From positions 798,131 to 862,130 of the forward strand of contig OY969116.1 of NCBI GenBank assembly GCA_963698075.1: a DNA stretch of 64,000 bases, written 5' to 3'. The notes under the pieces are model-generated. The model worked only from the letters and a program-made list of their open reading frames with translations, was not told where the DNA came from and did no database searches. This stretch comes from an uncultured Candidatus Berkelbacteria bacterium. Lineage in GTDB: Bacteria; Patescibacteriota; UBA1384; UBA12157; JAENIV01. A program made the translations under genes and the position numbers. Each line of letters begins with the position of its first letter. Positions within the stretch are counted from its first letter, which is position 1. This document shows positions 2,791 to 43,292 of this stretch, piece after piece.

Positions 2791-2800
2791 GGAGAACAGA

Positions 2801-9399: not shown

Positions 9400-9400
9400 A

Positions 9401-9646
9401 TTAGAGTACTTTTTCGATCTCTTTCTCGTCGAAACCAATAATCACCTGCCTGCCGGCAGGCAGGCCTTGACGCTCGATCACAATTACTGGCACACCCATT
9501 TGACCGGAAAGCTTGACCATTTCCTCGGCTTTCTTTTGGTCACGAGAAACATTAATATCCTCAAATGGTAGTTTTTTGGAGCTGAAATATTCTTTGGCCA
9601 TCTGGCAATTGGGGCAAGTCGGGGTAGTATAAATAGTGATTTTCAT
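9401..9646 (-). CDS. glutaredoxin-like (NrdH/thioredoxin-fold) protein
   Basis: CPNC active-site motif; 81 aa. Carries an in-frame GC palindrome encoding LPAGRQ. Confidence 0.7.
   Translation of the reverse strand: MKITIYTTPTCPNCQMAKEYFSSKKLPFEDINVSRDQKKAEEMVKLSGQMGVPVIVIERQGLPAGRQVIIGFDEKEIEKVL
9445..9464. repeat. perfect 20-bp GC-rich palindrome CCTGCCTGCCGGCAGGCAGG inside the glutaredoxin CDS
   Basis: In-frame; encodes LPAGRQ. Confidence 0.7.
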
Positions 9647-9725
9647 AATATTTTCAATTTCTAATTTTCAAAATTGAATCATTGAAAATTCAATGAAAAT
9701 TGAGAATTGATAATTGAAAATTAAA

Positions 9726-10065
9726 TTATTGGCTATTTTTATCGGCAAAGTCACCAATCAACGGCAGTTTATATCTTTCGCCATTGTAGGCTTTAACCAT
9801 CATCACCACAATCAAGACCACGTACAGCGGCCAGAGTAACCAACTAAAGAAGTTAATGACGGGGATAAAGCCCAAAACCAAGGTGATGATAAACCAGGCA
9901 ATCCCCAAAAATATCGATTGCAGCGCATGAAACTTAACGAACTTGTCTTTAGAAATCAAAAGAAAGACAAGCCCGACAATCCAAATGTAACAGAGCAACG
10001 CTGCTAATTTGGGGTCAATGCCCTCGGTGCCCCCATCGCCACCCCCTTGTTGTACTTCGGCCATA
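9726..10065 (-). CDS. small multi-TM membrane protein (DUF4870-like)
   Basis: Start placed at MAEVQQ because it has a perfect AAGGAGG RBS; hydrophobic core with a KFHALQSI motif. Confidence 0.45.
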
Positions 10066-10133
10066 AAAACCTCCTTTTTATACATTTTACCTATCCCCAT
10101 CATAACGAGGAAAGATTTATTTGTCAAACCCTT

Positions 10134-13565: not shown

Positions 13566-13737
13566 CTTTTTGCGTTTTTATCTTAGCATAATCTTATTTA
13601 ATGTTAAAACTTAAATGGTAAATGTTAAAGCTTCAACTTCAATGAAAAAGTAAATCGCAATCTTGACATCCTTCCTGCTTTATGTTAATCTTTTATTGTT
13701 GTTTTAACTTTTGAGTTTTAAGCTTTGAGTTATTATC

Positions 13738-14010
13738 ATGGCTCACACAAAAGCTAAGGGAACCAGTAAATTAGGTAGAGATAGTCGTTCAAAACGCTTA
13801 GGCGTTAAAGTTTTCGGTGGTCAAAAAATCAATGCCGGTCAAATAATTATCCGCCAGCGCGGTTCTAAATATTATGCGGGGGCGGGAGTCGCTCGAGCGA
13901 ATGACGATACTTTATATGCCAAAAAAACAGGGGTGATACGCTTTGACAATCGTCTAAGCCGTCGTTTCAGCGGCCGACTGTCGGATAAAACCGTCGTTTC
14001 CGTGGCTTGA
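13738..14010 (+). CDS. rpmA: 50S ribosomal protein L27
   Basis: MAHTKAKGTSKLGRDSRSKRLGVK... L27 signature. Confidence 0.9.
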   Translation: MAHTKAKGTSKLGRDSRSKRLGVKVFGGQKINAGQIIIRQRGSKYYAGAGVARANDDTLYAKKTGVIRFDNRLSRRFSGRLSDKTVVSVA

Positions 14011-14035
14011 GATTTCAAGAAAGTCTGGTGATCTG

Positions 14036-14058
14036 CCTGTCGGCAGACAGGTTTTCTT
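14036..14058 (+). terminator. terminator hairpin after rpmA
   Basis: CCTGTC-ggca-GACAGG followed by TTTTCTT. Confidence 0.5.
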
Positions 14059-14258
14059 GAGGGCTCAAGCAGTACCTTGAACAACCGAATAGAGCTCCCA
14101 AATTCCTTGGCGAAGGGAGGGATGCGTATCGAAGAGGTCACCGTCTTCTCCGAGAGGAGACCGGCGACATCATTAGTTCTAGTGTGTCAAAGGCCTTCTC
14201 CACACAGCAAACCCCGCAAGCCCAGGGGCGATGGGCTAGTCACAGTCAGGAGAGGCAG

Positions 14259-14633
14259 ATGGAAGAAGGAGCCGATTCAGCCGAAGTGAGGCCAGTGTGC
14301 CTCATGGTTGTCTCCGACAATGGCAATGGCCAGAAGCGCGTAGGCAAGGAAGCCGAGCCAACGTGCTTCAGTCGCGTCGTCTTTCCCCTGGGGGTCAAAA
14401 TGCAGTTTTCGCCAAGCGCGATCCCCCAACCGATCCGTTGCTGGACTGGTTTGGATCCAAGCGATCCATGCCAGAAAGGAGATCTCGTCGTTCCCCCTGA
14501 AGGCAGCGGAGTCCTCGCTTTCTCAAGTGAGGTCTCCGTGAACGTCGGTGATGAGTTCTGGCGCCAGGGCATCAGGCTGATGCCAGCCGATATCCAGGCC
14601 GCCAAGGCCTCAGGGGTGCAGTTCATCGAGTGA
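14259..14633 (+). CDS. hypothetical protein in GC-rich island C (weak call)
   Basis: ATG with AGGAGAGG RBS; stop is immediately followed by a strong terminator. Overlapping ORFs exist on both strands of this GC-rich block, so coding status is uncertain. Confidence 0.2.
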   Translation: MEEGADSAEVRPVCLMVVSDNGNGQKRVGKEAEPTCFSRVVFPLGVKMQFSPSAIPQPIRCWTGLDPSDPCQKGDLVVPPEGSGVLAFSSEVSVNVGDEFWRQGIRLMPADIQAAKASGVQFIE

Positions 14634-14655
14634 TGGACGCGTCGATCAGTCGGAT

Positions 14656-14692
14656 GGGCCGTCCCCCTGCGGGGGGACGGCCCAGTTTTTTT
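14656..14692 (+). terminator. rho-independent terminator
   Basis: GGGCCGTCCCCC-tgcg-GGGGGACGGCCC, then TTTTTTT. Confidence 0.55.
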
Positions 14693-14743
14693 CTTCTAAA
14701 GCTTGAATAAACTTTAATTATATGATAAATTAAATCCGTTAAA

Positions 14744-15265
14744 ATGCTTTTACAAGATTTAACCCAACAATTTGGTAAGAAAAATATTCCGGAAATTCGA
14801 CCGGGAGATACTGTCCGCGTCTCTTTTAAAATTACTGAGGGTAGTAAAACTCGACTTCAGTCTTACGAAGGAATTTGTATTGCCAAAAAGCATGGGAACA
14901 GTTTGGATGGTAGCTTGACGTTGCGAAAGATTTCCGGCGGCATTGGTGTTGAAAGAAGTTTTCCTCTTCATTCCCCTTTAATCTCAAAAATTGAAAAAAT
15001 CAAATCTCGAAAAACTCGCCGCTCCAAACTTTATTTTATTAGAGATCTTGTTGGTAAAAAAGCCAAAAAAGCGCGCGAGCTCAAAGATTATAAAATGTGG
15101 GAAGAAGCTCTTTCTGAGGAAGAGATCGCTCAAATTGAGGAAGAAAAACATCAAGCGGCTCTCAGGAAAGAAGCTGCCAAAGAAAAAGAAAAAGCTGAAT
15201 TAGAAAAGAAATTTGAAGCCGCCGCCGCCGCCCACGAAGAAGTCAAATCCCAAGAAAAAAAGTAA
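14744..15265 (+). CDS. rplS: 50S ribosomal protein L19 with K/E-rich C-terminal extension
   Basis: PEIRPGDTVRVSFKITEG...GGIGVERSFPLHSP is the L19 core. Confidence 0.9.
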   Translation: MLLQDLTQQFGKKNIPEIRPGDTVRVSFKITEGSKTRLQSYEGICIAKKHGNSLDGSLTLRKISGGIGVERSFPLHSPLISKIEKIKSRKTRRSKLYFIRDLVGKKAKKARELKDYKMWEEALSEEEIAQIEEEKHQAALRKEAAKEKEKAELEKKFEAAAAAHEEVKSQEKK

Positions 15266-15276
15266 AATATATTCCT

Positions 15277-15621
15277 ATGAAAGATGCTCGGCAAGAGCTC
15301 GGCAACATAGGCGAAGATCAAGCACTCCAATATTTGAAAAACAAGGGTTATGTTTTAATCGGCCGCAATCTTCGTCTTTTTTGTGGCGAAATCGATCTTT
15401 TAATGCGGGATAAAAAGGATTTGGTAATTGTTGAAGTTAAAACCAAATCGAGCAAAGATTTTGGTTTGGCCGCCGATATGATAACATATAAAAAGAAAAG
15501 GAAACTTTTGCAACTTGCCAAAGCCTTGTGGCAAAAATTTCCTAAAAAAAAGATTAGAATCGATGTTGTCGCCCTTGATGAGGAAAAAATCGCCCACATT
15601 ATTTCTGCGGTAGAGGAATAA
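15277..15621 (+). CDS. YraN-family (UPF0102) endonuclease
   Basis: GEDQALQYLKNKGY...GEIDLLMRD...VIVEVKTK motifs. Confidence 0.8.
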   Translation: MKDARQELGNIGEDQALQYLKNKGYVLIGRNLRLFCGEIDLLMRDKKDLVIVEVKTKSSKDFGLAADMITYKKKRKLLQLAKALWQKFPKKKIRIDVVALDEEKIAHIISAVEE

Positions 15622-15639
15622 TTCGTAGGAAAAAATATT

Positions 15640-17097
15640 ATGGATGAAATTAGAACAAGAATCGCGCCTTCACCAACCGGCCCCTTGCATATTGGCACGG
15701 CCCACACATCTTTGTTTAATTGGCTTTTTGCGCGGCAAAAAGGGGGGAAGTTTATTTTAAGAATTGAAGACACCGACAAAACGCGTTCCAAGGACGAGTT
15801 TGTTGTTGATATTGTTGATGGCCTAACTTGGTTGGGCTTGGACTGGGACGAAGGTCCGGAAAGAAATGATGCTTATGGTCCTTATCGTCAGAGCCAGCGC
15901 CTCTCAATTTATAAAAAATACGCTGATGAGCTTCTTGGCGAAAAAAAGGCCTATTATTGTTATTGCACCGCTGAAGAATTAAAAAAGGAGCGCTCTGCCC
16001 AAGAAGCTAAAAAACAAGCACCAAAATATTCTGGTCGCTGCCGAAATCTTTCCCCGACCCAAATTGCTAAATGTCAAGCTGAGGGCCGTCGGCCATCGAT
16101 AAGATTTATTGTTGAACCTCAAAAAGTTAAATTTAAAGACTTAATCAAAGGCGAATTGGATTTTGACGCCGCTCTTTTTGGGGATTTCGTCATTTTAAAA
16201 TCCGATGGCGTACCCACTTTTATCTTTGCCGGGGTTATCGATGATTTTTTAATGAAGATTTCCCATGTGATTCGCGGCGAAGATCATCTTCCCAATACCC
16301 CGCGGCAAATTCTTCTCAGTCAAGCCCTCAATTTTACTATTCCCGAATATGGCCACCTGTCGCTTATTCTTAATCCTGATCGAACCAAGCTTTCCAAACG
16401 TAAAAATCCAACCTCTATCAAAAAAGATTTCCGCGCCCACGGATATTTACCCGAAGCCATGATTAATTTCCTTGCCTTAATGGGTTGGTCGCCTCACAGT
16501 GACTCCGCCAAAAAAGGAAACGAGATCTGGCCTCTAAGCGAGCTCGTTAACGAATTTAATTTAGCAGACGTTGGTTTGAGTCCTTCAATTTTTGACCAAA
16601 AGAAACTTGATTTTCTTAACGGGTATTATATACGCAAGATGACTGTCGGCGAATTAACCAAAGCCGCTGAACCTTTTCTACATTCCGCCGGACTCGATGA
16701 TGAGAAAGAGAAAATCTTGATCGCCCTTTCGCTTGTCCAGGAAAGAGTCAAGAAATTAGCGGAAATCCCCCAATTAATAGACTTCTTTTTCAAGCCCCCG
16801 ACTGATTTTAGTAACATTTTGGTTCAAGAAGGATCGACAAAAGAAAAGACAAAAGTCGCCCTTGAACAAGCCTTTAAATATTTAAGTCAAGAAGAAGATT
16901 TTGGCCGCGACTCTTTAGAGCAATTACTTCGGGCGGTGGCCCAAAAAAATAATCTGTCGGCTGGAGAAGTTCTTTGGCCGATAAGAGTCGCCCTAACTGG
17001 CAAAGAAGCCTCCCCTGGCGCCTTTGAAGTTTTGGAAGCCCTCGGTAAAGAAGAGAGTCTCGCGCGTATCCAAAAAGCCATCGATATGATAAGATAA
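15640..17097 (+). CDS. gltX: glutamyl-tRNA synthetase
   Basis: HIGTAHT (HIGH) and KLSKRK (KMSKS) class I motifs. Confidence 0.95.
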   Translation: MDEIRTRIAPSPTGPLHIGTAHTSLFNWLFARQKGGKFILRIEDTDKTRSKDEFVVDIVDGLTWLGLDWDEGPERNDAYGPYRQSQRLSIYKKYADELLGEKKAYYCYCTAEELKKERSAQEAKKQAPKYSGRCRNLSPTQIAKCQAEGRRPSIRFIVEPQKVKFKDLIKGELDFDAALFGDFVILKSDGVPTFIFAGVIDDFLMKISHVIRGEDHLPNTPRQILLSQALNFTIPEYGHLSLILNPDRTKLSKRKNPTSIKKDFRAHGYLPEAMINFLALMGWSPHSDSAKKGNEIWPLSELVNEFNLADVGLSPSIFDQKKLDFLNGYYIRKMTVGELTKAAEPFLHSAGLDDEKEKILIALSLVQERVKKLAEIPQLIDFFFKPPTDFSNILVQEGSTKEKTKVALEQAFKYLSQEEDFGRDSLEQLLRAVAQKNNLSAGEVLWPIRVALTGKEASPGAFEVLEALGKEESLARIQKAIDMIR

Positions 17098-28610: not shown

Positions 28611-30191
28611 ATGGATCAAAAAAAGCCATCAGGTCCGCCACCAGGTGCGGCCGGACAAAAACCACCGGATATGCGTGAAATCATGGCTGATTATAATAAA
28701 GCGGTGAAGTTTTTTGCCAACACGCCGGCCGAAGCGTGGGAAGGGTTAGCGGTTAAAACCGCGATGGGGGTGTTTTCGGAAACGGCTCAAACTATACCTG
28801 CCTATCAAGAATTTTTAAAATTACAAAAATTCAATCCGGAAACAATCAAATCCATCGAAGATTTTTACAAAATCCCGGTGATGGATAAATATAATTACAT
28901 CCAAGCCTACGGCTTTAACGAAGTCAACTCGGCTAAAGCCGGCAAAGATCTGTATAGTGTCTCTCTAAGTTCAGGAACAATTGATGAACCAACCATTTGG
29001 CCACGCTATTACCAATACGAGGAGTTCCTTCCTTTGGTTTTTGATCTTTTAATGCGGCTCTATTGGCAAATTGATAAAAAATCAACTCTTGCCGTTAATG
29101 CTTATGCGATGGGACCTTGGATGGCGGGATTTTCCGTTCATTCAGCAATCAGGCCTTTAACGCAAAAATATAAATTAACTTTAGCCACCCCTGGTGCCGA
29201 TATTGATTCAATCGTTTATACAATTGTTAAGCTTTCTAAATTCTATGATCAAACTATAATTTTTTCTTACGCGACGTTTGCCAGAACCATCCTTGATCGT
29301 TTAGAAGAGGCAGGCCTGAATCTCAAAAAACTTAATCTTAAGATGTTCCTTGCCGGCGAAGGCCACACCGTTGAATGGCGCCAGTATATAAATAAGCTAG
29401 CCACCGGCGATCCGGAAAATTTGACCTGTATCATTGATGGATATGGTGTTACTGATACTGGTCTCTCTGGCCAAGGATCAGTTCTGACTAATTTGATCAG
29501 AGATCTGGCCCAGAAGAACGAAAAATTATGCGAAGATTTATTTGGTAGAACCGATTGTGTGCCATCTCTTTTCCAATACAATACTGGCACTTATTTTATC
29601 GAGGAAGTTAATGGTGAAGTTGTCATTACGACCAAAAGTACTACTCCACTCGTTAGATATAACCTTCATGATCACGGGGGGGTGATTAAATTTCGAGAAA
29701 TGACAGAAGTTCTTAATAAACATGGTTATGATTACAAAAAACTTTTGCGTAAAAAGAAACTAAATCCCGATGAAGTTGTTTGGCAACAGCCGTTTGTTTA
29801 TTGTTTCGGTAGGCGAGACGACACAGTGATCATTGGTGGCGCCAATGTTTATCCCGAGCAAATTGCTCCAGTTCTATTCAATGAGAAAGTCCGCGATATT
29901 CATAGCTTTAAACTGGCAACCGACTATGACAAAGAACAACATCAAATATTTTATATTTTACTCGAGCTCAAAGGTGGAATTTCGTATAGCCAAAAACAGA
30001 TTGAGAAAATGGAAAAGAAATATCACGATTGGATTATGGACAGATTGTTGAAGGTAAGCAGTGATTATGCCGTGTCTTACAAGGCTGATCCGGAATATGC
30101 CGATTTCATTATTAAAATATATAACAACGGTGAAGGTCCGTTTGAGAATGACAAAACAAGGACAAAACCAAGATTGGTTTTAAAGAAATAA
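28611..30191 (+). CDS. adenylate-forming enzyme, PaaK/CapK/F390-synthetase-like (ANL superfamily)
   Basis: SSGTIDEPT resembles the SSGTTGKP adenylation motif; 526 aa; PaaK-like arrangement. Confidence 0.45.
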   Translation: MDQKKPSGPPPGAAGQKPPDMREIMADYNKAVKFFANTPAEAWEGLAVKTAMGVFSETAQTIPAYQEFLKLQKFNPETIKSIEDFYKIPVMDKYNYIQAYGFNEVNSAKAGKDLYSVSLSSGTIDEPTIWPRYYQYEEFLPLVFDLLMRLYWQIDKKSTLAVNAYAMGPWMAGFSVHSAIRPLTQKYKLTLATPGADIDSIVYTIVKLSKFYDQTIIFSYATFARTILDRLEEAGLNLKKLNLKMFLAGEGHTVEWRQYINKLATGDPENLTCIIDGYGVTDTGLSGQGSVLTNLIRDLAQKNEKLCEDLFGRTDCVPSLFQYNTGTYFIEEVNGEVVITTKSTTPLVRYNLHDHGGVIKFREMTEVLNKHGYDYKKLLRKKKLNPDEVVWQQPFVYCFGRRDDTVIIGGANVYPEQIAPVLFNEKVRDIHSFKLATDYDKEQHQIFYILLELKGGISYSQKQIEKMEKKYHDWIMDRLLKVSSDYAVSYKADPEYADFIIKIYNNGEGPFENDKTRTKPRLVLKK

Positions 30192-30378: not shown

Positions 30379-31779
30379 TTAGATCCTTTTGATAACAGGT
30401 CCGGATTTGCTGTCTTGAACTTCATATCCGTGTTTGAGTAACTCTTCGCGAATCGTGTCGGCTCTTGCCCAGTCGTGGTTGGTTCGGGCTCTTGATCTTT
30501 CTTCGATTAGAACACGAACTTCATCTGGTATAGTTTCTTCTCTGATTCTGAACGGGTCTATGCCCAAGACTTGGTCAAAGGATCCCGCTATCTTGATCTT
30601 CATAGCGGGAGCGATTCTCGGGCTATCGACGACTCCCCAGAGTACGGCTAGGGCTTTCGGCGTATTGAGGTCATCGTTTATGTTTTGGAGGAAGCGTGTC
30701 CTGTACTCGTCGAAAATTGGATCGTTCGCTTTCACTTCACCCTGGTTTTGACCCCTCAGGTCGATAAACTTCTGTCTTAGTCTTTTGAGGGCGTTCTTGG
30801 CTCCGTCCAGCCCCTCAAATGTGAATTCGAGGGGACTACGATAATGTGCTCCCAAAAGGTAATAACGGTAGTCAAGCGGATCGTAGCCTCGGTCGATAAG
30901 GCTTTGGAGCGTCAGGAAACCACTACCTGACTTCGCCATTTTTTCGTCACCACCGACGATCAAAAAATCGTTGTGTAGCCAGTAGGAAACCCATTGGTGA
31001 CCAAGGGCGCCTTCGCTCTGGGCGATTTCGTTGGTGTGATGAACGGGAATGTGATCAATTCCCCCTGTGTGTATGTCAAATCTTTCGCCGAGGTATTTGC
31101 TTGCCATGGCTGAGCATTCGATGTGCCAACCTGGAAAGCCTCGTCCCCATGGCGAATCCCAGAGCATCGCATGACTGGAGTACTTATAGAAAGTAAACCA
31201 GAGCACAAAATCATGGGGAGACCGCTTATTGGGATCTTTCTCCACTCGAGCAATGTTTGAGGATTTGCTTAGATTTAGCCTTGCCAATCTTCCGTAATCC
31301 GGGAACTTAGAGGTGTCGAAGTACACATTGCCACCCGCGACGTACGCCAACCCGCGTTCTTCCAGACGCCTGATCATGGCGATGATTTCGGGAATATGTT
31401 GAGTTGCTGGGCATATGATGTTAGGCCGCTCGACTTGCAATAACTCTAAATCGTGAAGAAAAGCCTGAGTGTAGAAATCGGCGATTTCCCAAACAGTTTT
31501 CCCTTCTCGGGTTGCACTTTTCTCGATTTTATCTTCGCCTTCATCGGCGTCACTAGAAAGATGTCCTACGTCGGTGATGTTCATAACATGTTGAACATCG
31601 TAACCATTTACGCGAAACATCTTCTTAAGTGTATCGGCAAAAACGTAGGCCCTCAGATTGCCTATGTGGGCATAATTGTAAACTGTCGGGCCACAGGTGT
31701 ATATCCCGACTTTTCCAGGGACAAAGGGTCTGAAAACCTCTTTCTTTCGACTCATCGTGTTTGTGAGCTTAATCTCCAT
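30379..31779 (-). CDS. cysS: cysteinyl-tRNA synthetase
   Basis: [13 protein letters not shown] and KMAKSGSG motifs. Start placed at MEIKLTN, which has a GAAAGGAGG RBS. Confidence 0.95.
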
Positions 31780-31888
31780 TTTGTAACCTCCTTTCGCAAG
31801 GTGGGACTGAAGTATGTTATCCCTGAATACAAGGGATGATGAATGATCCATCCCTCTTGCATAATTTTATAATAAAATTATGCTTATG

Positions 31889-32899
31889 TCAATCACTAAT
31901 CTCCGAGAGCTTAGAAAACATTTTGTTGTTTAATAATTTTCTCGCCATTGAATTTGTGAGGACCTGTTTTAATTCTTGTTTTGATTTTACTAAGAAAAAG
32001 GATAGAAAGCCGTGGACATCACTTTTTTCTTGGGCATTGAATTTATTTTCAATCAATCGGAAGAACCTATCAATGTATGGGTCTTTTATTAATTGATATG
32101 AATCAAGATTTTTATAAGAATATTCATAAGGATTTTCGGGAAAATTTTTAATATTCTTTTTTACATACATAGATATTTCTTGATAAAGTTTATTTAAAAA
32201 TCTGATTCTTCTTTCAACATCTTCTTTCAGATAACTTTTAATTTTCATAGCCTCTTTTAAATTATTAAGACAATCCTGCGGCACAAAGGGAAAAGTTGCC
32301 AGAAAAGGTATGCTCCATTTTTTATGAGGCATAAATTGTTTATTAATGAGAAACAAGAGCTCAATTATTGAATCTACGCCATCGTTAATTAAATAATGAG
32401 CTGTCTCTGGGAATCCTCTTTTAAGTGCTCTTCGGGTGTGTATATTGACGTGCCAATTATATTGTCCCATTATCTTGATGATTCTGTTCTTTCTGTATGT
32501 TTCATCATGTTGAATTTTTCTTTCAATGAATTTTTTAACTTTTTCATTTTTATCGTAGACCAACAATCCATTAGCGAAAACAGCCTTTTTCCCTTCGGGC
32601 CATTCATTCCATTTATTTATCAGGTTTTCCTGATGTATATTAAATTCTAAAACTCTATTTTTATATTTGAGGTGAAATTCAAAACCTGGAAGATAGTCTG
32701 GAATGTTCTTTGTGTTGATAAAAATTGCCATATCCAAATCAGAAAATTTATCAATAAATCTTCGTTTCCCGAGTCCTCCGAGTAATACAATTCCTTCAAT
32801 CTCTTTCTTGGATTGAAAATTGGATACTAACAATTCGATTAATTCGTCGTATTGTTTTTTAATATTGAATGTTTTTAATTTTAACGTCATTTTGGACAT
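31889..32899 (-). CDS. Pol-beta-superfamily nucleotidyltransferase-like protein
   Basis: GGLGKRRFIDKFSDLDMAIF fits the minimal NTase motif (G[GS]x9-13DxD); lies in a very AT-rich island. Confidence 0.45.
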   Translation of the reverse strand: MSKMTLKLKTFNIKKQYDELIELLVSNFQSKKEIEGIVLLGGLGKRRFIDKFSDLDMAIFINTKNIPDYLPGFEFHLKYKNRVLEFNIHQENLINKWNEWPEGKKAVFANGLLVYDKNEKVKKFIERKIQHDETYRKNRIIKIMGQYNWHVNIHTRRALKRGFPETAHYLINDGVDSIIELLFLINKQFMPHKKWSIPFLATFPFVPQDCLNNLKEAMKIKSYLKEDVERRIRFLNKLYQEISMYVKKNIKNFPENPYEYSYKNLDSYQLIKDPYIDRFFRLIENKFNAQEKSDVHGFLSFFLVKSKQELKQVLTNSMARKLLNNKMFSKLSEISD

Positions 32900-32900
32900 G

Positions 32901-33737
32901 TTATCTAATTTTAATGTGTCTAATTTTTACACTTTGCCCGAAAACTATCTTCGCCAACGAATTTATGTTTCTTGACCATTCTTTTATTTCACCCGTGGTG
33001 TAGAATATTACATTTTCTAATTTTTTATTTGATTCGTCGAAGGGTCTCTTCTGTCTAAAAAATTCTGTAATCATATTACCTGGATCTAAATAAATTAAAT
33101 TTTTCCCAAATTCTATTTTTATCTCCTCTTGTATAAAACAAAAGCAGGTGCATCCCAGTAATACACCGTCTAAACTGTATTCTTTATATGATTTTAAATT
33201 TTTTAATATTCTATTTTTTCCCTCATTCGTATTGTGTTGTCCTCTTGCGATAACCGCTTCGCTTTCTGTTAAAATAAAATTTACCATTTTTTGGGGTTTG
33301 GCCATTTTAATGAGTTTAAAATATAATCCTGAATTTATTGTGTATTTAGTACCCAATACACCAATATTTCTATTACCTATAAAAACGGCAGAGTCTTTTA
33401 AAAGCAATTTTAACAGATCTACCATAGTTATAATTGTTATGTTGTATTTCTTTGAAATAATATTTTTAAAAGAATTTATAGCTATTGACGCTGTATTGCA
33501 GGCGACAACCAATAAAGTGAGTTTACTAATTTTGTTAAAATATCTCAGCCAACCGTCTACAATATTTATAATCTCTTTTTTAGATTTCAATCCGAATGGG
33601 TTCATCTCACCGTCAGCAAGAAATATAACATTATATTCTCCAATTTTATCTGAAAGATTTTTTAAGACAATGATACCACATGCGCATGAATCGGCAATTA
33701 ATATGGTTTTTTTAGTTTTGTCTAGTTTCTTATTCAT
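32901..33737 (-). CDS. Asp/Glu/hydantoin racemase family protein (MurI-like)
   Basis: Both catalytic-cysteine motifs are present: VVACNTASI and LLGCTCF. Confidence 0.65.
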   Translation of the reverse strand: MNKKLDKTKKTILIADSCACGIIVLKNLSDKIGEYNVIFLADGEMNPFGLKSKKEIINIVDGWLRYFNKISKLTLLVVACNTASIAINSFKNIISKKYNITIITMVDLLKLLLKDSAVFIGNRNIGVLGTKYTINSGLYFKLIKMAKPQKMVNFILTESEAVIARGQHNTNEGKNRILKNLKSYKEYSLDGVLLGCTCFCFIQEEIKIEFGKNLIYLDPGNMITEFFRQKRPFDESNKKLENVIFYTTGEIKEWSRNINSLAKIVFGQSVKIRHIKIR

Positions 33738-34920
33738 ATCCTTTTTTATTATAAGAATCCAATAAGATTTTTGCCATTCCGTTCATGGTTATTTGCATTT
33801 CTAAAGCGGGGCTACTATTACCCTCAATAACAATCGCTCCATCGGGAGTAAGTGTTATATCCCAGCCAATACAAGTAATAGTTGGAAAAAGATTGGCACA
33901 TTTAATCGCTAGATTGGTGACTTGCTTAATCTGTTTTACTTTTTTATTTCTAAATACGTATCCAGAGTTAATGTGAGCAGAATAAGTGTCTAATTTTCCA
34001 TCGTAAGCAATATTAGCCATTGAACCATCTTTAATATCAATCTGAAGATGTAGTCCACCTCCATGAACATTATCAATAAAAGATTTATTTATTCCACATC
34101 GCAGCGTACAAGCTAAAACACTAGTCCCTGTAAAGTGAGAGAAGTATGTTAGGACTCTGAAGGTATTTACCGAGGAGGAGTTAATTTTTTTTAATTCTTC
34201 GATTTGTTCTATACCTTCTTGTAATATCCAATCTCTAAAAGATAAGGTTTGCAGATATTCAATATCAAGCTTGATCTTTTTATCATTTTTAAAGATCATT
34301 TTACTTTTATCATACAAGAAAAGCATTATTTCATTACCGCCGCTTCCGGCATCAGCCGGCTTCATGAAGATTCTCTTTGATTTTGTAGAACTTAATGTTT
34401 TATTTAATTCAGCATTATTTTTAATTATTTCACAATCTTTATTGAATATTGTTCCTCTTTTTATTTTTATTAATGTGGTTGGTATTGGTATTTTGTAACC
34501 CCTGCAGATTTCCTCAAATATATTTTTGTCGTCAAGAAGCCATATATTTTTGTTTATTTTAGGCAAAATTTTGTAATACATAACTGTTTCGGGCATAAAG
34601 TTTAGTACCTCTTTATATGAGAAACTTTTGTCATACAACTTGTACCTGAAATAGTGAAACGGAAGGCATCGCCATGCTAAGGTTAACTTAATAAGCTCTA
34701 ATAGGGTCCCAATGAACCCCTTTTTGTTTTTATATTGTGAGAATTGAGCGATTTGATTATTTTTAAAATCTTTAACTTGGTATAAAAGCCATTTTGGCCA
34801 GGCATAAAATCGCAATCCCAGCGCTTCCATTTTCTCATATGAGATTTGGATGTTTTTATTAAAACTCATCGATTTATTATTTTTCATTTTCGAATTCGAC
34901 TTTAGAAAAAATAAGTACAT
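33730..34920 (-). CDS. ATP-grasp-like ligase (sugar-transfer-associated ATP-grasp family, putative)
   Basis: FMKPADAGSGGNEI P-loop-like motif; ~396 aa; overlaps the racemase gene. Confidence 0.4.
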   Translation of the reverse strand: MYLFFLKSNSKMKNNKSMSFNKNIQISYEKMEALGLRFYAWPKWLLYQVKDFKNNQIAQFSQYKNKKGFIGTLLELIKLTLAWRCLPFHYFRYKLYDKSFSYKEVLNFMPETVMYYKILPKINKNIWLLDDKNIFEEICRGYKIPIPTTLIKIKRGTIFNKDCEIIKNNAELNKTLSSTKSKRIFMKPADAGSGGNEIMLFLYDKSKMIFKNDKKIKLDIEYLQTLSFRDWILQEGIEQIEELKKINSSSVNTFRVLTYFSHFTGTSVLACTLRCGINKSFIDNVHGGGLHLQIDIKDGSMANIAYDGKLDTYSAHINSGYVFRNKKVKQIKQVTNLAIKCANLFPTITCIGWDITLTPDGAIVIEGNSSPALEMQITMNGMAKILLDSYNKKGYE

Positions 34921-35029
34921 CTTTCTTTGGAGAATATTATCAGGTTATTTATTCTTTGTCAAGCTATCCCTGAAAATGTAAGTCTAAAGTTATAAAAAAG
35001 AAGAATCCGTCCCGGAGTGGGACGGATGA

Positions 35030-35371
35030 CTAGAACTCGAGTTCTGAAAGGTGAAAGTCTTGGACGGTAGAGAAGGCTCCAACCATCCAGGCTCGAAGAT
35101 TAGTGGTAACGAACTCTCTAAGGATGACGCAGATGGCCTCCTCGATCTCATCCTTGTTTGTTTGGGCGTTTGCTTCCTTGGTATCGATGTGGATCTGGGC
35201 GAAGAGACCAGCGCTGTCGGATAAGTGGGATGGAACGATCTCGACGAAAATCGGTTTGACGATGGTGTCGATATTCAGTATCTCAGCAACCTTGCTCTGA
35301 ATATTGTCTCGCAGAGCTTTCTGTTCGTCTGGGCTGATGGTGTCAGGTATGCCGTAAATGTGGATGAGCAT
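35030..35371 (-). CDS. tandem tautomerase-fold-like small protein, paralog A
   Basis: Two beta-alpha-beta halves resembling 4-OT (LIHIYGIP...DEQKALRDNIQSKVAEIL...PIFVEIVP). ~90% identical to 43375..43716. Has its own promoter and terminator. Confidence 0.35.
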   Translation of the reverse strand: MLIHIYGIPDTISPDEQKALRDNIQSKVAEILNIDTIVKPIFVEIVPSHLSDSAGLFAQIHIDTKEANAQTNKDEIEEAICVILREFVTTNLRAWMVGAFSTVQDFHLSELEF

Positions 35372-37435: not shown

Positions 37436-37660
37436 ATGGCAATTAAAACTGTCAACATCTCATTCCCAGACAATGTTCTTAAGCAAATTGACGAGTTTGC
37501 GAAAAAAGAAGCTTTAAGCCGAAGCGATGTTTTAAGAATTGGTGCCAAAAAATATATTCGTAATTTTACCGAATGGCAGCTTTTGCAGGAGATTGGCGAA
37601 AAACAAGCTAAAAAACTTGGTTTAGACACGGAAGAAAAGGTCGTTAAAATCTTGCAATGA
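37436..37660 (+). CDS. ribbon-helix-helix (CopG-family) antitoxin
   Basis: 74 aa with RHH N-terminus; TTGACA-17-TATATT promoter immediately after the HK stop; 4-nt overlap with the PIN gene. Confidence 0.6.
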   Translation: MAIKTVNISFPDNVLKQIDEFAKKEALSRSDVLRIGAKKYIRNFTEWQLLQEIGEKQAKKLGLDTEEKVVKILQ

Positions 37661-38076
37661 AAATTGTCATTGATAGTTCGGTTTGGATTGCGGGGATTGG
37701 TTCTCGTACCGGCTTTGCTAGCCAGATTATTTTTAAATCATATAAAAGTTCTCAAATTGAAATTTTTATCTCAAATAAGATTTTGGATGAAATTTCGATT
37801 AATTTAGAAAAAAAGTTAAAATTCGACACCTCAACTAGTCATCGAGCCCGACAAACTGTCAGAAATCTATGTGACTTTGAAGTCGAAGTGAGCTCCAGAG
37901 ATGAGAAAACAATTAGCAAGAGATATCCTGAAGATAAACATATTCTTGCTTTATGCCGAAAGATTCAAGCTGATTATTTGATCACATTTGACCGCAAACA
38001 TTTGTTACCTTTGAAAAAATTCGATCGAACTTTAATTTTAGAACCCAAGGATTTTGTCAAAGTGATGAACTCTTAA
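37657..38076 (+). CDS. PIN-domain toxin (VapC-like)
   Basis: MKIVIDSSVWIA N-terminus with the acidic D and a later LITFD motif; overlaps the RHH gene. Confidence 0.7.
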   Translation: MKIVIDSSVWIAGIGSRTGFASQIIFKSYKSSQIEIFISNKILDEISINLEKKLKFDTSTSHRARQTVRNLCDFEVEVSSRDEKTISKRYPEDKHILALCRKIQADYLITFDRKHLLPLKKFDRTLILEPKDFVKVMNS

Positions 38077-39268: not shown

Positions 39269-40975
39269 ATGGAATCTCAAGAAAAATTGGAAATTTTAAG
39301 GCATTCCTGCGCTCATTTATTGGCGGCGGCCATTCACGAAATTTATTCTGGCGCCAAATTTGCGATTGGGCCTTCAATCGAAAATGGTTTTTATTATGAT
39401 TTCGGTTTGCCAAAAACTTTAACCCCTGAAGATCTAAAAAAAATCGAAGCCAAAATGCATGAGCTTTCCAAAAAGGACTTGCCGTTTGAAAAATCGGAAT
39501 TGTCTAAAAAAGAGGCGATTGATAAAGAGAAAAAAGCCAAGCAAAACTACAAAGTTGAACTCATAAACGATATTCCCGATGAAAAAGTCATCTACTTTAC
39601 GACGGGTGATTTTGTTGATCTCTGTCGTGGTCCGCATGTAAAGTCCACTGGCGAGATTGGACATTTCAAGCTTTTAAATATTGCCGGTGCCTATTGGCGG
39701 GGCGATGAGAGAAACCCGATGCTTCAAAGAATCTACGGTACCTGTTGGGAAAGCGAAAAAGATTTAGAAAAGTACCTTGAAATGCTTGAACAGGCAAAGC
39801 TCCGTGACCACCGAAAGATCGGCCAGGATTTGGATTTGTTCTCTTTTCATCCCGAAGCCCCGGGGATGGTTTTCTGGCATCCCAAAGGCAAAGTGATTTT
39901 TGATTTATTGGTAGATTTTTCCCGCGAGAAATCAAAAAAATTTGGCTACCAAGAAGTTTTGACGCCCAACGTTTTAAACATCAATATTTGGAAGGTTTCT
40001 GGTCATTGGGATCATTACAAAGATGCGATGTACTTTGCCGGCGGCAATGAAGCAAAGGAGCAAAATTTTGGAATTCGTCCCATGGGTTGTCCTGGCTCGA
40101 TTTTAATTTACAAAACCAAAACTCATTCTTATAAAGATCTGCCGATTCGTTACTCTGAGTTTGATACTTTGATGCGTAAAGAACTTTCGGGGACTTTACA
40201 CGGATTGTTTAGGGTCCAACAGTTAACACAAGACGATGCTCATTTGTTTTTACGCGAGGATCAGATTCTTGAAGAGATCACTTCAGTTTTAAAACTGGTA
40301 GATGAAACTTATAAAGAATTAGGGCTTCGATACACGATTAATCTTTCCACCCGACCATCTGATTTTATGGGCAAAATCGAAACCTGGGAAAAAGCCGAAA
40401 AAGACTTAAAAGAGGCACTTAAGAAAAGTGGTTTTGAGTATAAAATCAAAGAGGGCGACGGAGCATTCTACGGTCCGAAAATTGATATTGATGTTCTGGA
40501 TGCTTTAGATCGAGCCTGGCAGTGTTCGACGATTCAGCTTGATTTTCAAATGCCGGAGAAATTTGATTTAGACTTTGTCGACGGAAAGAGGAAAAAGGTT
40601 CGGCCGGTGATGATTCATCGCGTGATTTTGGGTTCAATTGAAAGATTCACTGGCATTCTGCTTGAGCATTTTGGCGGCGCTTTACCGACTTGGCTTTCGC
40701 CGACCCAGGCCATTGTCCTGCCGGTTTCCGATAAGCACATTGAATATGCGAAAAAAGTAGCCGAAGACTTTAAGGGTTTCCGGGTAGCAGTTGACGAACG
40801 GAACGAATCGCTCGGTAAAAAAATCCGCGATGCCGAACTTCAAAAAGTCCCATTTATAATTGTGGTTGGCGATAAAGAGATAAGCGACAAAAATATCACC
40901 ATTAGAACGCGCGGCTCAAGGGACCTCAAAGTCTCTAATATCGAGAAATTAATTAAGCTCATAGGCGAAAAATAA
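39269..40975 (+). CDS. thrS: threonyl-tRNA synthetase (short form)
   Basis: Class II aaRS with ThrRS editing/catalytic motifs (HSCAHLLAAAI..., FRVQQLTQDDAH). Confidence 0.95.
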   Translation: MESQEKLEILRHSCAHLLAAAIHEIYSGAKFAIGPSIENGFYYDFGLPKTLTPEDLKKIEAKMHELSKKDLPFEKSELSKKEAIDKEKKAKQNYKVELINDIPDEKVIYFTTGDFVDLCRGPHVKSTGEIGHFKLLNIAGAYWRGDERNPMLQRIYGTCWESEKDLEKYLEMLEQAKLRDHRKIGQDLDLFSFHPEAPGMVFWHPKGKVIFDLLVDFSREKSKKFGYQEVLTPNVLNINIWKVSGHWDHYKDAMYFAGGNEAKEQNFGIRPMGCPGSILIYKTKTHSYKDLPIRYSEFDTLMRKELSGTLHGLFRVQQLTQDDAHLFLREDQILEEITSVLKLVDETYKELGLRYTINLSTRPSDFMGKIETWEKAEKDLKEALKKSGFEYKIKEGDGAFYGPKIDIDVLDALDRAWQCSTIQLDFQMPEKFDLDFVDGKRKKVRPVMIHRVILGSIERFTGILLEHFGGALPTWLSPTQAIVLPVSDKHIEYAKKVAEDFKGFRVAVDERNESLGKKIRDAELQKVPFIIVVGDKEISDKNITIRTRGSRDLKVSNIEKLIKLIGEK

Positions 40976-40981
40976 AAAACA

Positions 40982-41908
40982 TTGAAAATACTTAAGAATC
41001 TTTACGGTAAAGAAAAAAACGATGAGTATTTCAAGTTGCTTTTATCGGCCGGGGAAGGGTTTTTAGTAGAAACGTTGATTGGTAAATGTGTCGTTTCAAA
41101 AAAAGGACTTTTTCCTAAACTAAATCTCCCAGATAGTTCTTTAAGAAAAACACACGTGTTCTGTTGTGTTTCTACTCAAATTGGCTGCGTCAACACTTGT
41201 CGTTTTTGCAATAATCGAAAAAAGCGCTTCGTAAGAAATTTAAGTCTGTCAGAAATAAAACAAGAGGTAGATGAAGCTCAAAAAATCTCCCGAAAATTCT
41301 TTGGTCAGAGACTGGAGGAAATTCAATTCGGGGGGATTGGTGAGCCGCTTCTGAATTTGGAAAATGTTATCCGGACAATCGAAATCTTTCACAAGGAAGA
41401 CCAAAATGTCTTTTTTGGGTTTCCGACAACTGGCTTACCGCTAAAAAATTTTCAAAAATTGATTAGAAAATTTTCTGACAAACTCTTGCCAATTTACTTA
41501 CAGATCTCTTTGCACGCCTCAAATGATATTCTTAGGAAAAAAATAATGGGTGTGGGAAACATCCGTCAGATTATACAACTGGCCCAAGAATATTCGGAAA
41601 AGGTTAAATCTCCTGTTATTATTAACTACTTAATGATTCGACAAGTTAATGATCAAATCTGCTTTGCGGATGAGCTCATCCGTTTGTTAGACCAACATTC
41701 GTTAACAAATAAGGTGGTTGTCAAACTATCAATACCAAATGATACAAACACGAAATTTAGCTGTCCGTCGGATGAAAAAAGAATAGACGAATTTAAAGAA
41801 AGACTCGTATCGGCTGGAATTGATGTGGCTGTCTTCGTTAGCGGGGGGAAATCTGTGAAAGCCGGGTGCGGTCAACTTACGGTTTCCCATCAAAAAATCC
41901 AAAAATAA
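40982..41908 (+). CDS. RlmN/Cfr-family radical SAM RNA methyltransferase-like protein
   Basis: CVSTQIGCVNTCRFC cluster motif, GIGEPLLN, and C-terminal GGKSVKAGCGQL, which matches the RlmN second catalytic Cys. Confidence 0.7.
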   Translation: MKILKNLYGKEKNDEYFKLLLSAGEGFLVETLIGKCVVSKKGLFPKLNLPDSSLRKTHVFCCVSTQIGCVNTCRFCNNRKKRFVRNLSLSEIKQEVDEAQKISRKFFGQRLEEIQFGGIGEPLLNLENVIRTIEIFHKEDQNVFFGFPTTGLPLKNFQKLIRKFSDKLLPIYLQISLHASNDILRKKIMGVGNIRQIIQLAQEYSEKVKSPVIINYLMIRQVNDQICFADELIRLLDQHSLTNKVVVKLSIPNDTNTKFSCPSDEKRIDEFKERLVSAGIDVAVFVSGGKSVKAGCGQLTVSHQKIQK

Positions 41909-42010
41909 CAGCAAAAATTGTTTTTTTGTTCTAATTGTGTTTTAATGGATGTGCGAAACGTGTGCAGTGTCGTTCTGCCATGTTTTGTAGAACATTGAAA
42001 GGAGAAGGGC

Positions 42011-42067
42011 ATGAAGAGGTACGTACGCCCGACCATCAGGCGGATCGCCCGCATCACGACCACCTAG
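42011..42067 (+). CDS. candidate RiPP precursor peptide (18 aa, MKRYVRPTIRRIARITTT)
   Basis: AAAGGAGAAGGG RBS then ATG, located 5' of a PqqD-like RRE and an rSAM-SPASM gene; highly cationic, no Cys. Confidence 0.35.
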   Translation: MKRYVRPTIRRIARITTT

Positions 42068-42144
42068 GGGCGATTCGCCGGAAGCCGCACAAGAGGAGGA
42101 GGTTTACACAACTCCTCCTCTATTCGTAGTAAAGGAGAAAGGAA

Positions 42145-42390
42145 GTGTTGAAAACCGCCGAAGGAGTCAGATTCAGTCCCACGGAACCTCTGGTCTACCA
42201 CGATCAGGATTTGTTTGAGGCTAACGAAGTCACCTTGCGGATTCTCGATCTCTGTCAGCAGCCGCAGGACCAGGAGGATCTAGTCGCCCGGCTCGGTTGC
42301 GAATATCAGGTCGCCGAGAACGAATTGGCAGATGATGTTTCCGCTATCGTCTCCGACCTGGTTCAATGCGGCATTCTGGTGGAAGTGTGA
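42145..42390 (+). CDS. PqqD-family RiPP recognition element protein
   Basis: 81 aa with the PqqD pattern (EANEVTLRILDLC...QEDLVARL...DVSAIVSDLVQCGIL); GTG start with AAAGGAGAAAGG RBS. Confidence 0.65.
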   Translation: MLKTAEGVRFSPTEPLVYHDQDLFEANEVTLRILDLCQQPQDQEDLVARLGCEYQVAENELADDVSAIVSDLVQCGILVEV

Positions 42391-43292
42391 TGGCCAGCGT
42401 CTATCCCGTCACCGTCATGTGGAACTTCGGCTATCAGTGCAATATGAATTGCATCCACTGCTACTCAAGACAAGACGCCAGGGCAAACATCGAACACGAA
42501 ATGACACTGGTGCAGGCCGAGCACATTGCTGCCGAGATAATCGCCGCCAAAGCCGTCCATACCCATTTCGGAGGGGGTGAGTCCTTGATGAGACCAGACT
42601 TTGGTCCGATCGCTTCCTCACTGACGAGCACCGGCATTAACGTGAGTCTAAGTTCCAATGGGGCGTTTATCGATGAAAGCACAGCGAATCTCCTTCGAGT
42701 TATACCTCTCGATTTTGTTTCCTTGAGTTTTCACGGTATCAAAGCCGCAACGCACGACGCATTCACCCGTCATCCGGGTTCTTTCGACGGTTTGCTACGA
42801 GCGGCTACCATTCTCAAGGCGGCCGGCGTGAGGACGAAGATCGTTTTCTCGCTCCACGCTCGTAGCAGAGATGAGGCCCCCGGGGTCTTTGATCTGGCGC
42901 GAGAGTGCGGTGTTACCTTCGTGCAGTTTGCCTATGTCAAAGCCGTGGGAAACGCGGCCGAAAACCTCACAAGTTTGCAGTTGAGTCCTTCAGAATGGGT
43001 AGCTTTGTATTCGGCAATCCGCACCCAGGCCGAATCTTACCCTGATCTGAATATTCACTTTGGTCTAGACAACAATCCCATAATCGCAGGCTATGTGGGG
43101 CAAACCATTCTCCCATGTCCGTGCGGAAGATATTCGATCGCAATCAAGCCCAATGGGGATGTCTCCCCGTGCAATGTCGTTACTACCGTCGTGGGAAACG
43201 TCTATCGCCAATCCCTGCTCGATATTTGGCAAGAGGCACCGGAGCTTATCAAAATCCGCTCCGGGACGGCAAATCCCTGCGCCTCCTTTTAA
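42390..43292 (+). CDS. radical SAM enzyme with C-terminal SPASM/twitch domain (PqqE-like peptide maturase)
   Basis: CNMNCIHC cluster motif near the N-terminus and a C-terminal CPCG...SPC auxiliary-cluster Cys motif; 1-nt overlap with the PqqD-like gene. Confidence 0.8.
   Translation: MASVYPVTVMWNFGYQCNMNCIHCYSRQDARANIEHEMTLVQAEHIAAEIIAAKAVHTHFGGGESLMRPDFGPIASSLTSTGINVSLSSNGAFIDESTANLLRVIPLDFVSLSFHGIKAATHDAFTRHPGSFDGLLRAATILKAAGVRTKIVFSLHARSRDEAPGVFDLARECGVTFVQFAYVKAVGNAAENLTSLQLSPSEWVALYSAIRTQAESYPDLNIHFGLDNNPIIAGYVGQTILPCPCGRYSIAIKPNGDVSPCNVVTTVVGNVYRQSLLDIWQEAPELIKIRSGTANPCASF

Follow-up and report, generated by a model that had tools for sequence, protein, structure and literature searches.

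What is the function of a very AT-rich island of three genes that lies beside a cysteinyl-tRNA synthetase gene in a bacterium of the candidate phyla radiation (CPR)? The island occupies the minus strand of a 64-kb stretch of DNA from an uncultured Candidatus Berkelbacteria bacterium (contig OY969116.1; the whole stretch is referred to as the window) and encodes an ATP-grasp ligase, a MurI-like racemase and a nucleotidyltransferase, after which comes cysS, the gene for cysteinyl-tRNA synthetase (CysRS). The first-pass annotation of this DNA had proposed a three-gene module for D-amino-acid ligation or nucleotidylation, with the racemase as a core member and cysS as a mere flank. The comparison of related loci revealed a different arrangement, in which CysRS was the most constant partner of the nucleotidyltransferase and the racemase was mostly missing. 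None of the three proteins, all members of known superfamilies, has a characterised close relative; they now form part of a defined, testable cassette, whose constant partner across CPR bacteria and actinomycetes is the synthesis of Cys-tRNA. No description of this cassette was found in the literature searched; it is a previously undescribed variant of the biosynthetic cassettes that are associated with an aminoacyl-tRNA synthetase (aaRS).

Linkage of the nucleotidyltransferase to Cys-tRNA synthesis

The set of related loci, assembled by means of sequence patterns, is partly redundant, and its open reading frames (ORFs) were called mechanically. A genome scan with one genome per species yielded 33 ATP-grasp loci, 28 of them well flanked (at least 3 kb on each side), and a metagenome search that started from the nucleotidyltransferase yielded 51 loci, 15 of them well flanked; a partner was counted when it lay within 4 kb. 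The 33 genome loci came mostly from Streptomyces, Kitasatospora, Kibdelosporangium, Glycomyces, Sphaerisporangium and Actinophytocola, and also from Saccharibacteria and metagenome bins. The nearest homologues of the window ATP-grasp were found in Parcubacteria, Saccharibacteria and metagenome bins, and those of actinomycetes were more distant. In the neighbourhoods of the nearest homologues, the ATP-grasp gene adjoined genes for a relative of the window nucleotidyltransferase (336 aa) and for a CysRS of class I, the latter being replaced by SepRS and SepCysS genes in the Parcubacteria genome DG_74_2.

Among the well-flanked genome loci centred on the ATP-grasp, the nucleotidyltransferase was present in 28 of 28 and full-length CysRS in 26 of 28. 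The metagenome loci centred on the nucleotidyltransferase carried CysRS in 13 of the 15 well-flanked cases and in 39 of all 51, including loci that had no ATP-grasp gene. The latter showed the arrangements CysRS-nucleotidyltransferase-transporter-rubrerythrin, CysRS-nucleotidyltransferase-phosphodiesterase-transporter and CysRS-alanine racemase-nucleotidyltransferase-phosphodiesterase. More than 20 gene orders were observed, with the nucleotidyltransferase and CysRS genes adjacent in either order, and the order of the window (ATP-grasp, racemase, nucleotidyltransferase, CysRS) was found in 8 other loci. As controls, window-type cysS genes from Mesotoga and from another Patescibacteria genome were inspected; these had unrelated neighbours and no cassette, and the association therefore runs from the cassette to cysS and not from cysS to the cassette. 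Because CysRS recurs with the nucleotidyltransferase in loci without the ATP-grasp, and because the racemase is mostly missing, the cassette has a hierarchy: the nucleotidyltransferase and CysRS form its core, the ATP-grasp is a frequent addition, and a racemase, an asparagine-synthase-like gene or neither is added, depending on the lineage. In particular, the racemase was found in only 2 of the 28 ATP-grasp-centred genome loci and in no actinomycete copy, so that it cannot be counted as a core member.

The cassettes differed in their additional genes. Those of actinomycetes were compact and contained the ATP-grasp, the nucleotidyltransferase, full-length CysRS and a small 2-oxoglutarate (2OG)-Fe(II) oxygenase; such four-gene Streptomyces versions should be easy to express and test. 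The last genes of about ten CPR cassettes encoded a carbohydrate deacetylase (YdjC) and a weakly GT2-like protein of 307 aa, and several cassettes lay near relaxase, TrwB or resolvase genes. A long co-directional arrangement was observed at 2007-16524 of the metagenome contig Ga0206844_10098 (locus L068), where genes for an ABC exporter, HlyD, BtrH_N, an aminotransferase, a xylose-isomerase-like TIM barrel and the nucleotidyltransferase were followed by DAHP synthase, alanine racemase, a Zn-dehydrogenase, an AMP-binding (adenylating) enzyme and CysRS; it looks like a secondary-metabolite cluster. The fullest cassette was observed in a bin labelled 'Nanoarchaeota archaeon' (GCA_030648155.1, L043/L044), beside Cpn60_TCP1/Cpn10 chaperonin and IF-2 genes. 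It consisted of an N-terminally short CysRS-like gene, a 51-aa ORF, ATP-grasp, asparagine-synthase-like, PhyH, nucleotidyltransferase, CysRS, 2OG-Fe_Oxy_2 and racemase genes; the archaeal label of this bin may be wrong.

The CysRS enzymes of the cassettes were compared in a simple neighbour-joining tree with E. coli as the sole outside reference. The CysRS genes beside the nucleotidyltransferase were polyphyletic, and the window enzyme fell in the canonical group. It is of canonical full length (PF01406, DALR_2 and CysS_C), with intact Zn ligands (C28/C209/H234/E238) and intact HIGH and KMxKS motifs. Its identity was 63-65% to Mesotoga (Thermotogota) and ~56-57% to the named Patescibacteria matches, and the GC content at third codon positions (GC3) of its gene was 0.51, compared with a window mean of 0.42; on account of the closer Mesotoga identity and the raised GC3, the window cysS may itself be a xenologue. 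Outside the canonical group, the tree brought to notice a divergent, cross-phylum clade of 34 of the 58 unique CysRS sequences, which does not include the window enzyme. In this clade, the Zn ligand C209 (E. coli numbering) is changed to Asp, with WHIEDTA in place of WHIECSA, and the further changes W198L, S210T, N237A and S242M are present; the HIGH and KMSKS motifs and the anticodon-binding domains are kept. It comprises all actinomycete cassette copies, the CPR loci L006, L007, L009, L053 and L059, and also L084 and L086/L088; the copies concerned lie in the loci L006-L039, L053, L059, L084 and L086. With the cysS equivalog model, the actinomycete cassette CysRS scored 442.7 bits and thereby passed the cut-off of 340. 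Additionally, five actinomycete loci carried a truncated MshC-like CysRS paralogue besides the full-length CysRS (388.6 bits for TIGR03447, against a cut-off of 485), and four of these five also had a second ATP-grasp gene. A tRNA-free architecture of the MshC type was not the rule, as both the window CysRS and the constant CysRS of the cassettes are full length.

An indication of what the cassette is tied to came from the Parcubacteria genome DG_74_2, where SepRS-like and SepCysS genes precede the cassette at the place where CysRS would be. The SepCysS protein scored 500.9 bits against a cut-off of 365, and the genes that follow encode a radical SAM protein, the ATP-grasp, an asparagine-synthase-like protein, the nucleotidyltransferase and the racemase. 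SepRS and SepCysS have been shown experimentally to make Cys-tRNA(Cys) (PMC5424206); the neighbouring genes are unmentioned in that paper and in a later review. This replacement suggests that the linked feature is the formation of Cys-tRNA and not one CysRS lineage, and the cassette is a possible reason why this Parcubacterium keeps the mostly archaeal SepRS-SepCysS route at this locus. A different synthetase was observed in a Saprospiraceae genome (GCA_016712145.1, L045/L046), where a homologue of the nucleotidyltransferase lay with tyrosyl-tRNA synthetase (TyrRS) and not with CysRS. The other genes there encode PhyH, a pyridoxal-phosphate-dependent decarboxylase, a 133-aa ORF, an alanine-dehydrogenase-like protein, HAD and GNAT, and the set lies on a mobile element, flanked by resolvase, TrwB-like and Fic genes.

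Folds and catalytic residues of the three proteins

The three domain calls of the first-pass annotation were confirmed with Pfam. The nucleotidyltransferase matched DUF4037 (33.2 bits, cut-off 22.1), and the Pol-beta NTase model PF18765 scored below its cut-off (21.4 bits against 26.9). It consists of a Pol-beta NTase domain, the DUF4037 helical domain and a C-terminal helical extension. The catalytic motif reads LLGGLGK...SDLD, in which GG is replaced by SS in actinomycetes; across 65 unique homologues, S53-D54-x-D56 was invariant and E85, N87 and H89 were nearly so. The AlphaFold2 (AF2) model had a predicted local distance difference test (pLDDT) score of 92.7, and its best Foldseek matches were ANT(4'), ANT(4')-IIb, ANT(6) and LinB (E 3e-7 to 2e-5, target-normalised template modelling (TM) scores of at most 0.61). 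The ANT(4') structures 6nmk and 1kan gave an E value of 3e-7 and TM scores of 0.47 when normalised to the query and 0.60 when normalised to the target. In a survey of HEPN-superfamily proteins, DUF4037 is placed among the helical domains that form the C-terminal part of aminoglycoside nucleotidyltransferases (PMC3710099). The cassette protein thus shares with these enzymes of the KNTase fold a two-domain layout, Pol-beta NTase plus helical substrate-binding domain, and the catalytic carboxylate motif; it differs in its identity of 12-16%, in its additional C-terminal extension and in its context, which looks biosynthetic and is linked to CysRS instead of to resistance genes. At the sequence level, no relatives were detected in the PDB for the nucleotidyltransferase or for the GT2-like protein. 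Given the invariant SDxD motif and the ANT-like predicted fold, the protein is most likely an active small-molecule nucleotidyltransferase. The family is small, with 257 cluster representatives at E of at most 1e-10 among 1.84 billion. In five of these representatives, an N-terminal xylose-isomerase-like TIM barrel is fused to the nucleotidyltransferase, the same pair that stands as adjacent separate genes in L068; fusions to a GT2 glycosyltransferase domain and to a PhnW-like aminotransferase were found in one representative each. These fusions, together with the neighbouring genes, suggest that the enzyme acts in sugar chemistry.

The ATP-grasp protein matched PF14397 (ATPgrasp_ST) with an E value of 2.4e-43 and 148.8 bits, against a cut-off of 31.4. 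Residues K187, G195, R255, D354, E366 and N368 were invariant in an alignment of 29 homologues, so the catalytic residues are retained; since the genes also co-occur elsewhere, the two observations that would have spoken against the proposed trio were not made. In the Foldseek search with its AF2 model (pLDDT 89.5), the nearest solved folds were RimK, D-Ala-D-Ala ligases (Ddl) and other peptide-forming ATP-grasp enzymes (E 2e-8 to 1e-6). The likeness is loose, with TM scores of 0.42-0.58 overall and query-normalised scores of 0.42-0.44 for RimK, which was also the only protein detected, marginally, in a PDB sequence search. RimK and Ddl have the ATP-grasp fold and the Lys, Gln-Glu, Arg, Asp and Glu-x-Asn catalytic set in common with the cassette enzyme and lack its N-terminal helical domain of ~125 aa, which is specific to the subfamily and bears the motifs WRCLPFHYxRY, PETVxYY and LLDDK. 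The homologues begin at the position of M18, and the true start of the window protein is therefore probably the ATG at 34869, which gives 379 aa; the gene as called in the public record (288 aa) lacks invariant residues of the N-terminus and is hence too short. The protein is basic (isoelectric point ~8.5-9.9) in most lineages, including most of the high-GC actinomycete copies, a property compatible with a polyanionic substrate. Glycosyltransferase genes were not found beside the window or actinomycete PF14397 copies, and the weakly GT2-like protein with YdjC occurred in the ~10 CPR cassettes mentioned above. Annotated relatives on plasmids were limited to distant PF14397 proteins with 24-33% identity. 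Campylobacter Cj1438C was considered as a characterised homologue and rejected; it is described with a TupA-like ATP-grasp fold, not PF14397, and offers an analogy only.

The racemase is clearly of the MurI type by its sequence, but not a typical member. It barely passed the Asp_Glu_race model PF01177 (34.6 bits, cut-off 31) and failed the MurI equivalog models TIGR00067 (96.4 bits against 146.65) and NF002035 (83.8 against 328). Its PDB matches were glutamate racemases, from 3.6e-15 for the best (B. subtilis 1zuw) to 6.4e-7, and an aspartate racemase at 5.5e-4. Both catalytic Cys motifs are kept, with VVACNTAS and LGCTCF aligning with the RacE motifs. The pocket motifs are altered; the window protein has DSCACG in place of DSGVGG and GCTCF in place of GCTHYP. 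All cassette-linked racemases share DSC[AS][CG]G, ADxxxNP[FL]G and [GA]CTCF, whereas canonical MurI proteins in the same alignment (L089 and L091) have DSGVGG, GDTARSPYG and GCTHYP. The window racemase belongs to a cassette-specific, divergent MurI subfamily. Because the motifs are specific to this subfamily, a housekeeping MurI identity is unlikely, and because the pocket is altered, the substrate need not be free glutamate; the supply of D-Glu or D-Asp that had been proposed is accordingly not established. In other cassettes, the racemase gene is swapped for the asparagine-synthase-like gene or is absent.

Possible functions of the cassette

Taken together, these features suggest an accessory, mobile pathway that would act on sugar-like and amino-acid substrates and would be tied to the activation of cysteine. 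We tentatively favour, with somewhat less than even confidence, a pathway independent of nonribosomal peptide synthetases that builds or decorates a small cysteine-bearing conjugate, with cysteine delivered through Cys-tRNA. Starting from the observed folds, catalytic residues and gene linkage, with putative substrates at each step and a putative role for the tRNA, such a pathway could proceed as follows. The racemase would supply a D-amino acid, perhaps similar to D-Glu; the ATP-grasp would activate a carboxylate as an acyl phosphate and form an amide bond; the nucleotidyltransferase would move a nucleoside monophosphate onto a hydroxyl of a sugar-like acceptor or intermediate; and cysteine would enter as Cys-tRNA(Cys) made by the co-located, probably co-transcribed CysRS. 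Entry through Cys-tRNA is suggested by the one genome in which CysRS gives way to SepRS-SepCysS, a pair whose only product is Cys-tRNA. In other genomes, the more complete cassettes also contain the GT2-like protein, YdjC, the MshC-like cysteine ligase, the asparagine-synthase-like enzyme and 2OG oxygenases. If this reading is correct, a novel low-molecular-weight thiol or a novel natural product could result.

The pathways of mycothiol and bacillithiol (MshA-D and BshA-C) offer the closest comparison for such a conjugate. An enzyme of the CysRS family stands within a small-molecule pathway here too, as the CysRS paralogue MshC does in that of mycothiol; the fuller cassettes, with a GT2-like protein and the sugar N-deacetylase YdjC, recall the mycothiol and bacillithiol logic of glycosyltransferase, deacetylase and cysteine ligase, and the truncated paralogue in five actinomycete loci has MshC as its best model. 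In contrast to mycothiol synthesis, the constant partner of the cassette is a full-length CysRS with anticodon-binding domains. The cassette also lacks a deacetylase of the LmbE type and MshD, its ANT-like nucleotidyltransferase and its ATP-grasp have no counterpart in these pathways, and the window copy has no sugar genes. Two other systems offer analogies of logic only. PEARLs such as TglB form amides with ATP and Cys-tRNA, and the pyl operon (PylS, PylB, PylC and PylD) combines an aaRS, an ATP-grasp ligase and an enzyme that forms a D-amino acid. Unlike these, the cassette has no LanB-like domain, no gene for a scaffold peptide and no dedicated tRNA gene.

Several points weigh against a Cys-tRNA-dependent conjugate. 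A product or an activity has been demonstrated for no member of the cassette. The Pfam domains Fem/GNAT, CDPS and LanB/PEARL were absent from the cassette genes examined, and the use of Cys-tRNA would therefore need a new class of enzyme, because the known folds that use aminoacyl-tRNA are missing; likewise, no tRNA gene, for tRNA(Cys) or otherwise, was found in a cassette among the 29 loci scanned. The window has no YdjC or GT2-like gene, and its cysS, of an ordinary housekeeping type and behind a promoter-like site of its own, differs from the trio in GC content (0.48 against 0.30), so that the adjacency in the window could be an accident of integration or left over from recombination. In actinomycete gene clusters, additional copies of an aaRS more usually serve for resistance. 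Finally, the sampled loci were retrieved by pattern and include near-identical Streptomyces and groundwater contigs.

Under the main rival explanation, which we consider rather unlikely, the trio builds or masks an inhibitor of CysRS, possibly similar to an aminoacyl-adenylate or a prodrug, and the gene that forms Cys-tRNA is an immune, extra or over-expressed target, with SepRS-SepCysS as a natural bypass. The duplication of a target in gene clusters is an established principle according to reviews. Among accessory clusters with an aaRS, the SerRS VlmL of valanimycin synthesis supplies aminoacyl-tRNA, and those of mupirocin, albomycin and agrocin 84 carry self-resistance copies. The cassette resembles these clusters in that an aaRS gene is conserved in a mobile, accessory and biosynthetic-looking setting, and differs in its companion enzymes; the literature searched offered no such case for cysteine, and the aaRS of a cassette in a small genome is probably the housekeeping copy. 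With the synthetase or bypass as self-protection, the production of an inhibitor would naturally explain the extra actinomycete CysRS, the D209 clade, the transporters and the mobility. Actinomycetes normally carry a housekeeping cysS and mshC, and a cassette CysRS that passes the cysS equivalog model would thus be additional; the actinomycete copies and several CPR copies form the one divergent C209D clade. Relaxase, TrwB or resolvase genes lie near cassettes, several loci have exporter or transporter genes and a type-I phosphodiesterase gene on the flanks of the nucleotidyltransferase, L068 is a larger cluster with an exporter, and the Saprospiraceae homologue pairs with a different synthetase. 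This explanation fits the window less well, as the CysRS there is of an ordinary, Mesotoga-like kind, keeps the canonical Zn ligands and has no exporter nearby; in CPR bacteria, with their small genomes, it is probably the sole CysRS, and neither a natural CysRS inhibitor nor a matching cluster was found in the literature searched. If it is nevertheless correct, the cassette would be the first natural CysRS-directed system, as far as that literature shows.

Two other explanations are less likely than both the conjugate and the inhibitor. A pure resistance module, in which the ANT-like enzyme nucleotidylates an incoming antibiotic beside a replacement CysRS and efflux, appears very improbable; its ATP-grasp and racemase would, by analogy with VanA and VanT, remodel the drug or target further. 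The closest solved folds of the nucleotidyltransferase are indeed all antibiotic nucleotidyltransferases, the minimal loci consist of CysRS, nucleotidyltransferase and transporter (L069-L072, L081-82), and the contexts of the cassettes are mobile. However, the identity to ANT enzymes is low, the fusion partners (sugar-isomerase-like TIM barrel, GT2, aminotransferase) have a biosynthetic look, and so do neighbours such as DAHP synthase, the aminotransferase, the adenylating enzyme, the asparagine-synthase-like enzyme and the MshC-like ligase. Only slightly less doubtful is the stand-alone D-amino-acid ligation or cell-envelope module of the first-pass annotation, for which the position of cysS would be incidental; the amidation of capsules would be another model for it. 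Pairs of ATP-grasp and racemase are known from cell-wall metabolism, as in the D-Asp ligase of E. faecium with its racemase and VanC with VanT, and the overlap of the adjacent ATP-grasp and racemase genes, the association with sugar transfer in the name of PF14397, the nearest folds RimK and Ddl, and the distinct composition and promoter-like site of cysS would all suit it. The cassette differs from those pairs in its MurI-like racemase with an altered pocket, in having no linked cell-wall genes, and in that its pair is embedded with the nucleotidyltransferase and CysRS. The adjacency to CysRS, moreover, recurs over phyla and gene orders, most cassettes have no racemase, and the racemase motifs are unlike those of housekeeping MurI. 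No mur, fem, glycopolymer- or polysaccharide-synthesis gene and no precursor gene for a ribosomally synthesised and post-translationally modified peptide (RiPP) was conserved with the trio, and the cell-wall, polymer or RiPP role that had been suggested is not supported.

Beyond the favoured conjugate pathway, the cassette might encode an unrecognised chemistry that depends on aminoacyl-tRNA, an unlikely outcome that could take either of two forms. The basic ATP-grasp, the ANT-like nucleotidyltransferase or both may act directly on Cys-tRNA(Cys), which would define a novel class of enzymes that use aminoacyl-tRNA for purposes other than translation and make the ATP-grasp a counterpart of the PEARLs. 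Alternatively, the C209D CysRS may charge tRNA(Cys) with a residue other than cysteine that is then converted on the tRNA, as with SepRS and SepCysS. If this were true, the occurrence of canonical CysRS, D209 CysRS or SepRS-SepCysS at the same position would reflect the need for a substrate bound to tRNA(Cys).

The AT-rich island in the window

The gene counts and GC comparison covered the 48 window ORFs with a length of 150 aa or more. The trio comprised the three lowest-GC ORFs of the 48 (28.7-31.3%, z = -2.3 to -2.9), and its GC was depressed at each of the three codon positions; the remaining 45 ORFs had a mean of 0.429 (sd 0.050, minimum 0.335). The span 31889-34920 measured 0.301, so the GC content of ~28% first given for it was somewhat too low, while its contrast with cysS held. 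The edges of the island are sharp, as cysS downstream has a GC content of 0.477 and a 113-aa ORF upstream one of 0.491. The genes had also been described as overlapping, which is true of the ATP-grasp and racemase genes (8 nt) and not of the racemase and nucleotidyltransferase genes, which are spaced by 1 nt. Between the nucleotidyltransferase gene and cysS lie 37-109 nt, according to which cysS start is chosen.

Table 1. Coordinates of the island genes, cysS and predicted signals in the window
Feature	Position	Strand	Description
ATP-grasp gene	33730-34920	-	ORF 396 aa; PF14397
Racemase gene	32901-33737	-	ORF 278 aa; MurI family
Nucleotidyltransferase gene	31889-32899	-	ORF 336 aa; ANT/KNTase type
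cysS	30379-31779	-	466 aa from probable start ATG behind GGAGG ribosome-binding site
Terminator-like hairpin	35005-35027	-	9-bp stem with 6 GC pairs, then T run; 3' end of 113-aa ORF
Promoter-like site TTGACA-17-TAATAT with TG	34934-34962	-	5' of ATP-grasp gene; consensus match only
Promoter-like site TTGACA-17-TAAAAT	31864-31892	-	11/12 matches; covers nucleotidyltransferase stop codon, 5' of cysS

In other genomes, the GC content of the cassettes matches that of the host (0.24-0.69), and the low GC therefore belongs to the window copy and not to the family. The composition supports the foreign low-GC origin proposed at first and suggests that the trio is a recent, horizontally acquired copy of a mobile accessory operon. 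Owing to the contrast in composition, the trio and cysS are not recent co-arrivals; their adjacency in the window may have arisen by insertion or recombination at cysS, or by in-situ replacement of the synthetase gene. As listed in Table 1, the hairpin and the first promoter-like site mark the upstream edge of the island and the second promoter-like site marks the downstream edge, although the region as a whole had no more promoter-like sites than expected from shuffling. The stretch between the nucleotidyltransferase gene and cysS contained no terminator-like site, so that read-through from the trio into cysS is possible. We found no convincing direct or inverted repeats bracketing the island as integration scars, and no tRNA gene near it in the window. 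The PADLOC search for anti-phage defence gave no match for the trio, cysS or the 113-aa ORF, and identity as a defence system was rejected on this basis.

The 113-aa ORF (35030-35371, minus strand) has a GC3 of 0.63 and ends in a strong terminator-like hairpin. Neither Pfam nor NCBIfam gave a match, and among the related loci it recurred only in L001 and L042, which are two further retrievals of the same contig. We rejected it as a member of the cassette in view of the missing homologues elsewhere, its differing GC and its terminal hairpin.

Some other genes of the window were recorded. Convergent with cysS, a 526-aa protein (28611-30191, plus strand) scored 47 bits against a cut-off of 646 for PaaK-type phenylacetate-CoA ligase and may be a divergent adenylate-forming enzyme. 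Between a histidine kinase gene and a 2'-5' RNA-ligase-like gene, a 74-aa gene and an overlapping PIN-domain gene (139 aa) at 37436-38076 (plus strand) are probably a toxin-antitoxin pair of the VapBC type. About 6 kb from the island, the region 39269-43292 contains thrS, a radical SAM gene (40982-41908), a PqqD-like gene (~42145-42390) and a radical SAM/SPASM gene (42366-43292) whose GC of 0.53 is far above that of its neighbours; the last three look like a RiPP-maturase-like set. L002 also has radical SAM/SPASM genes directly beside its cassette, and L005 has them nearby.

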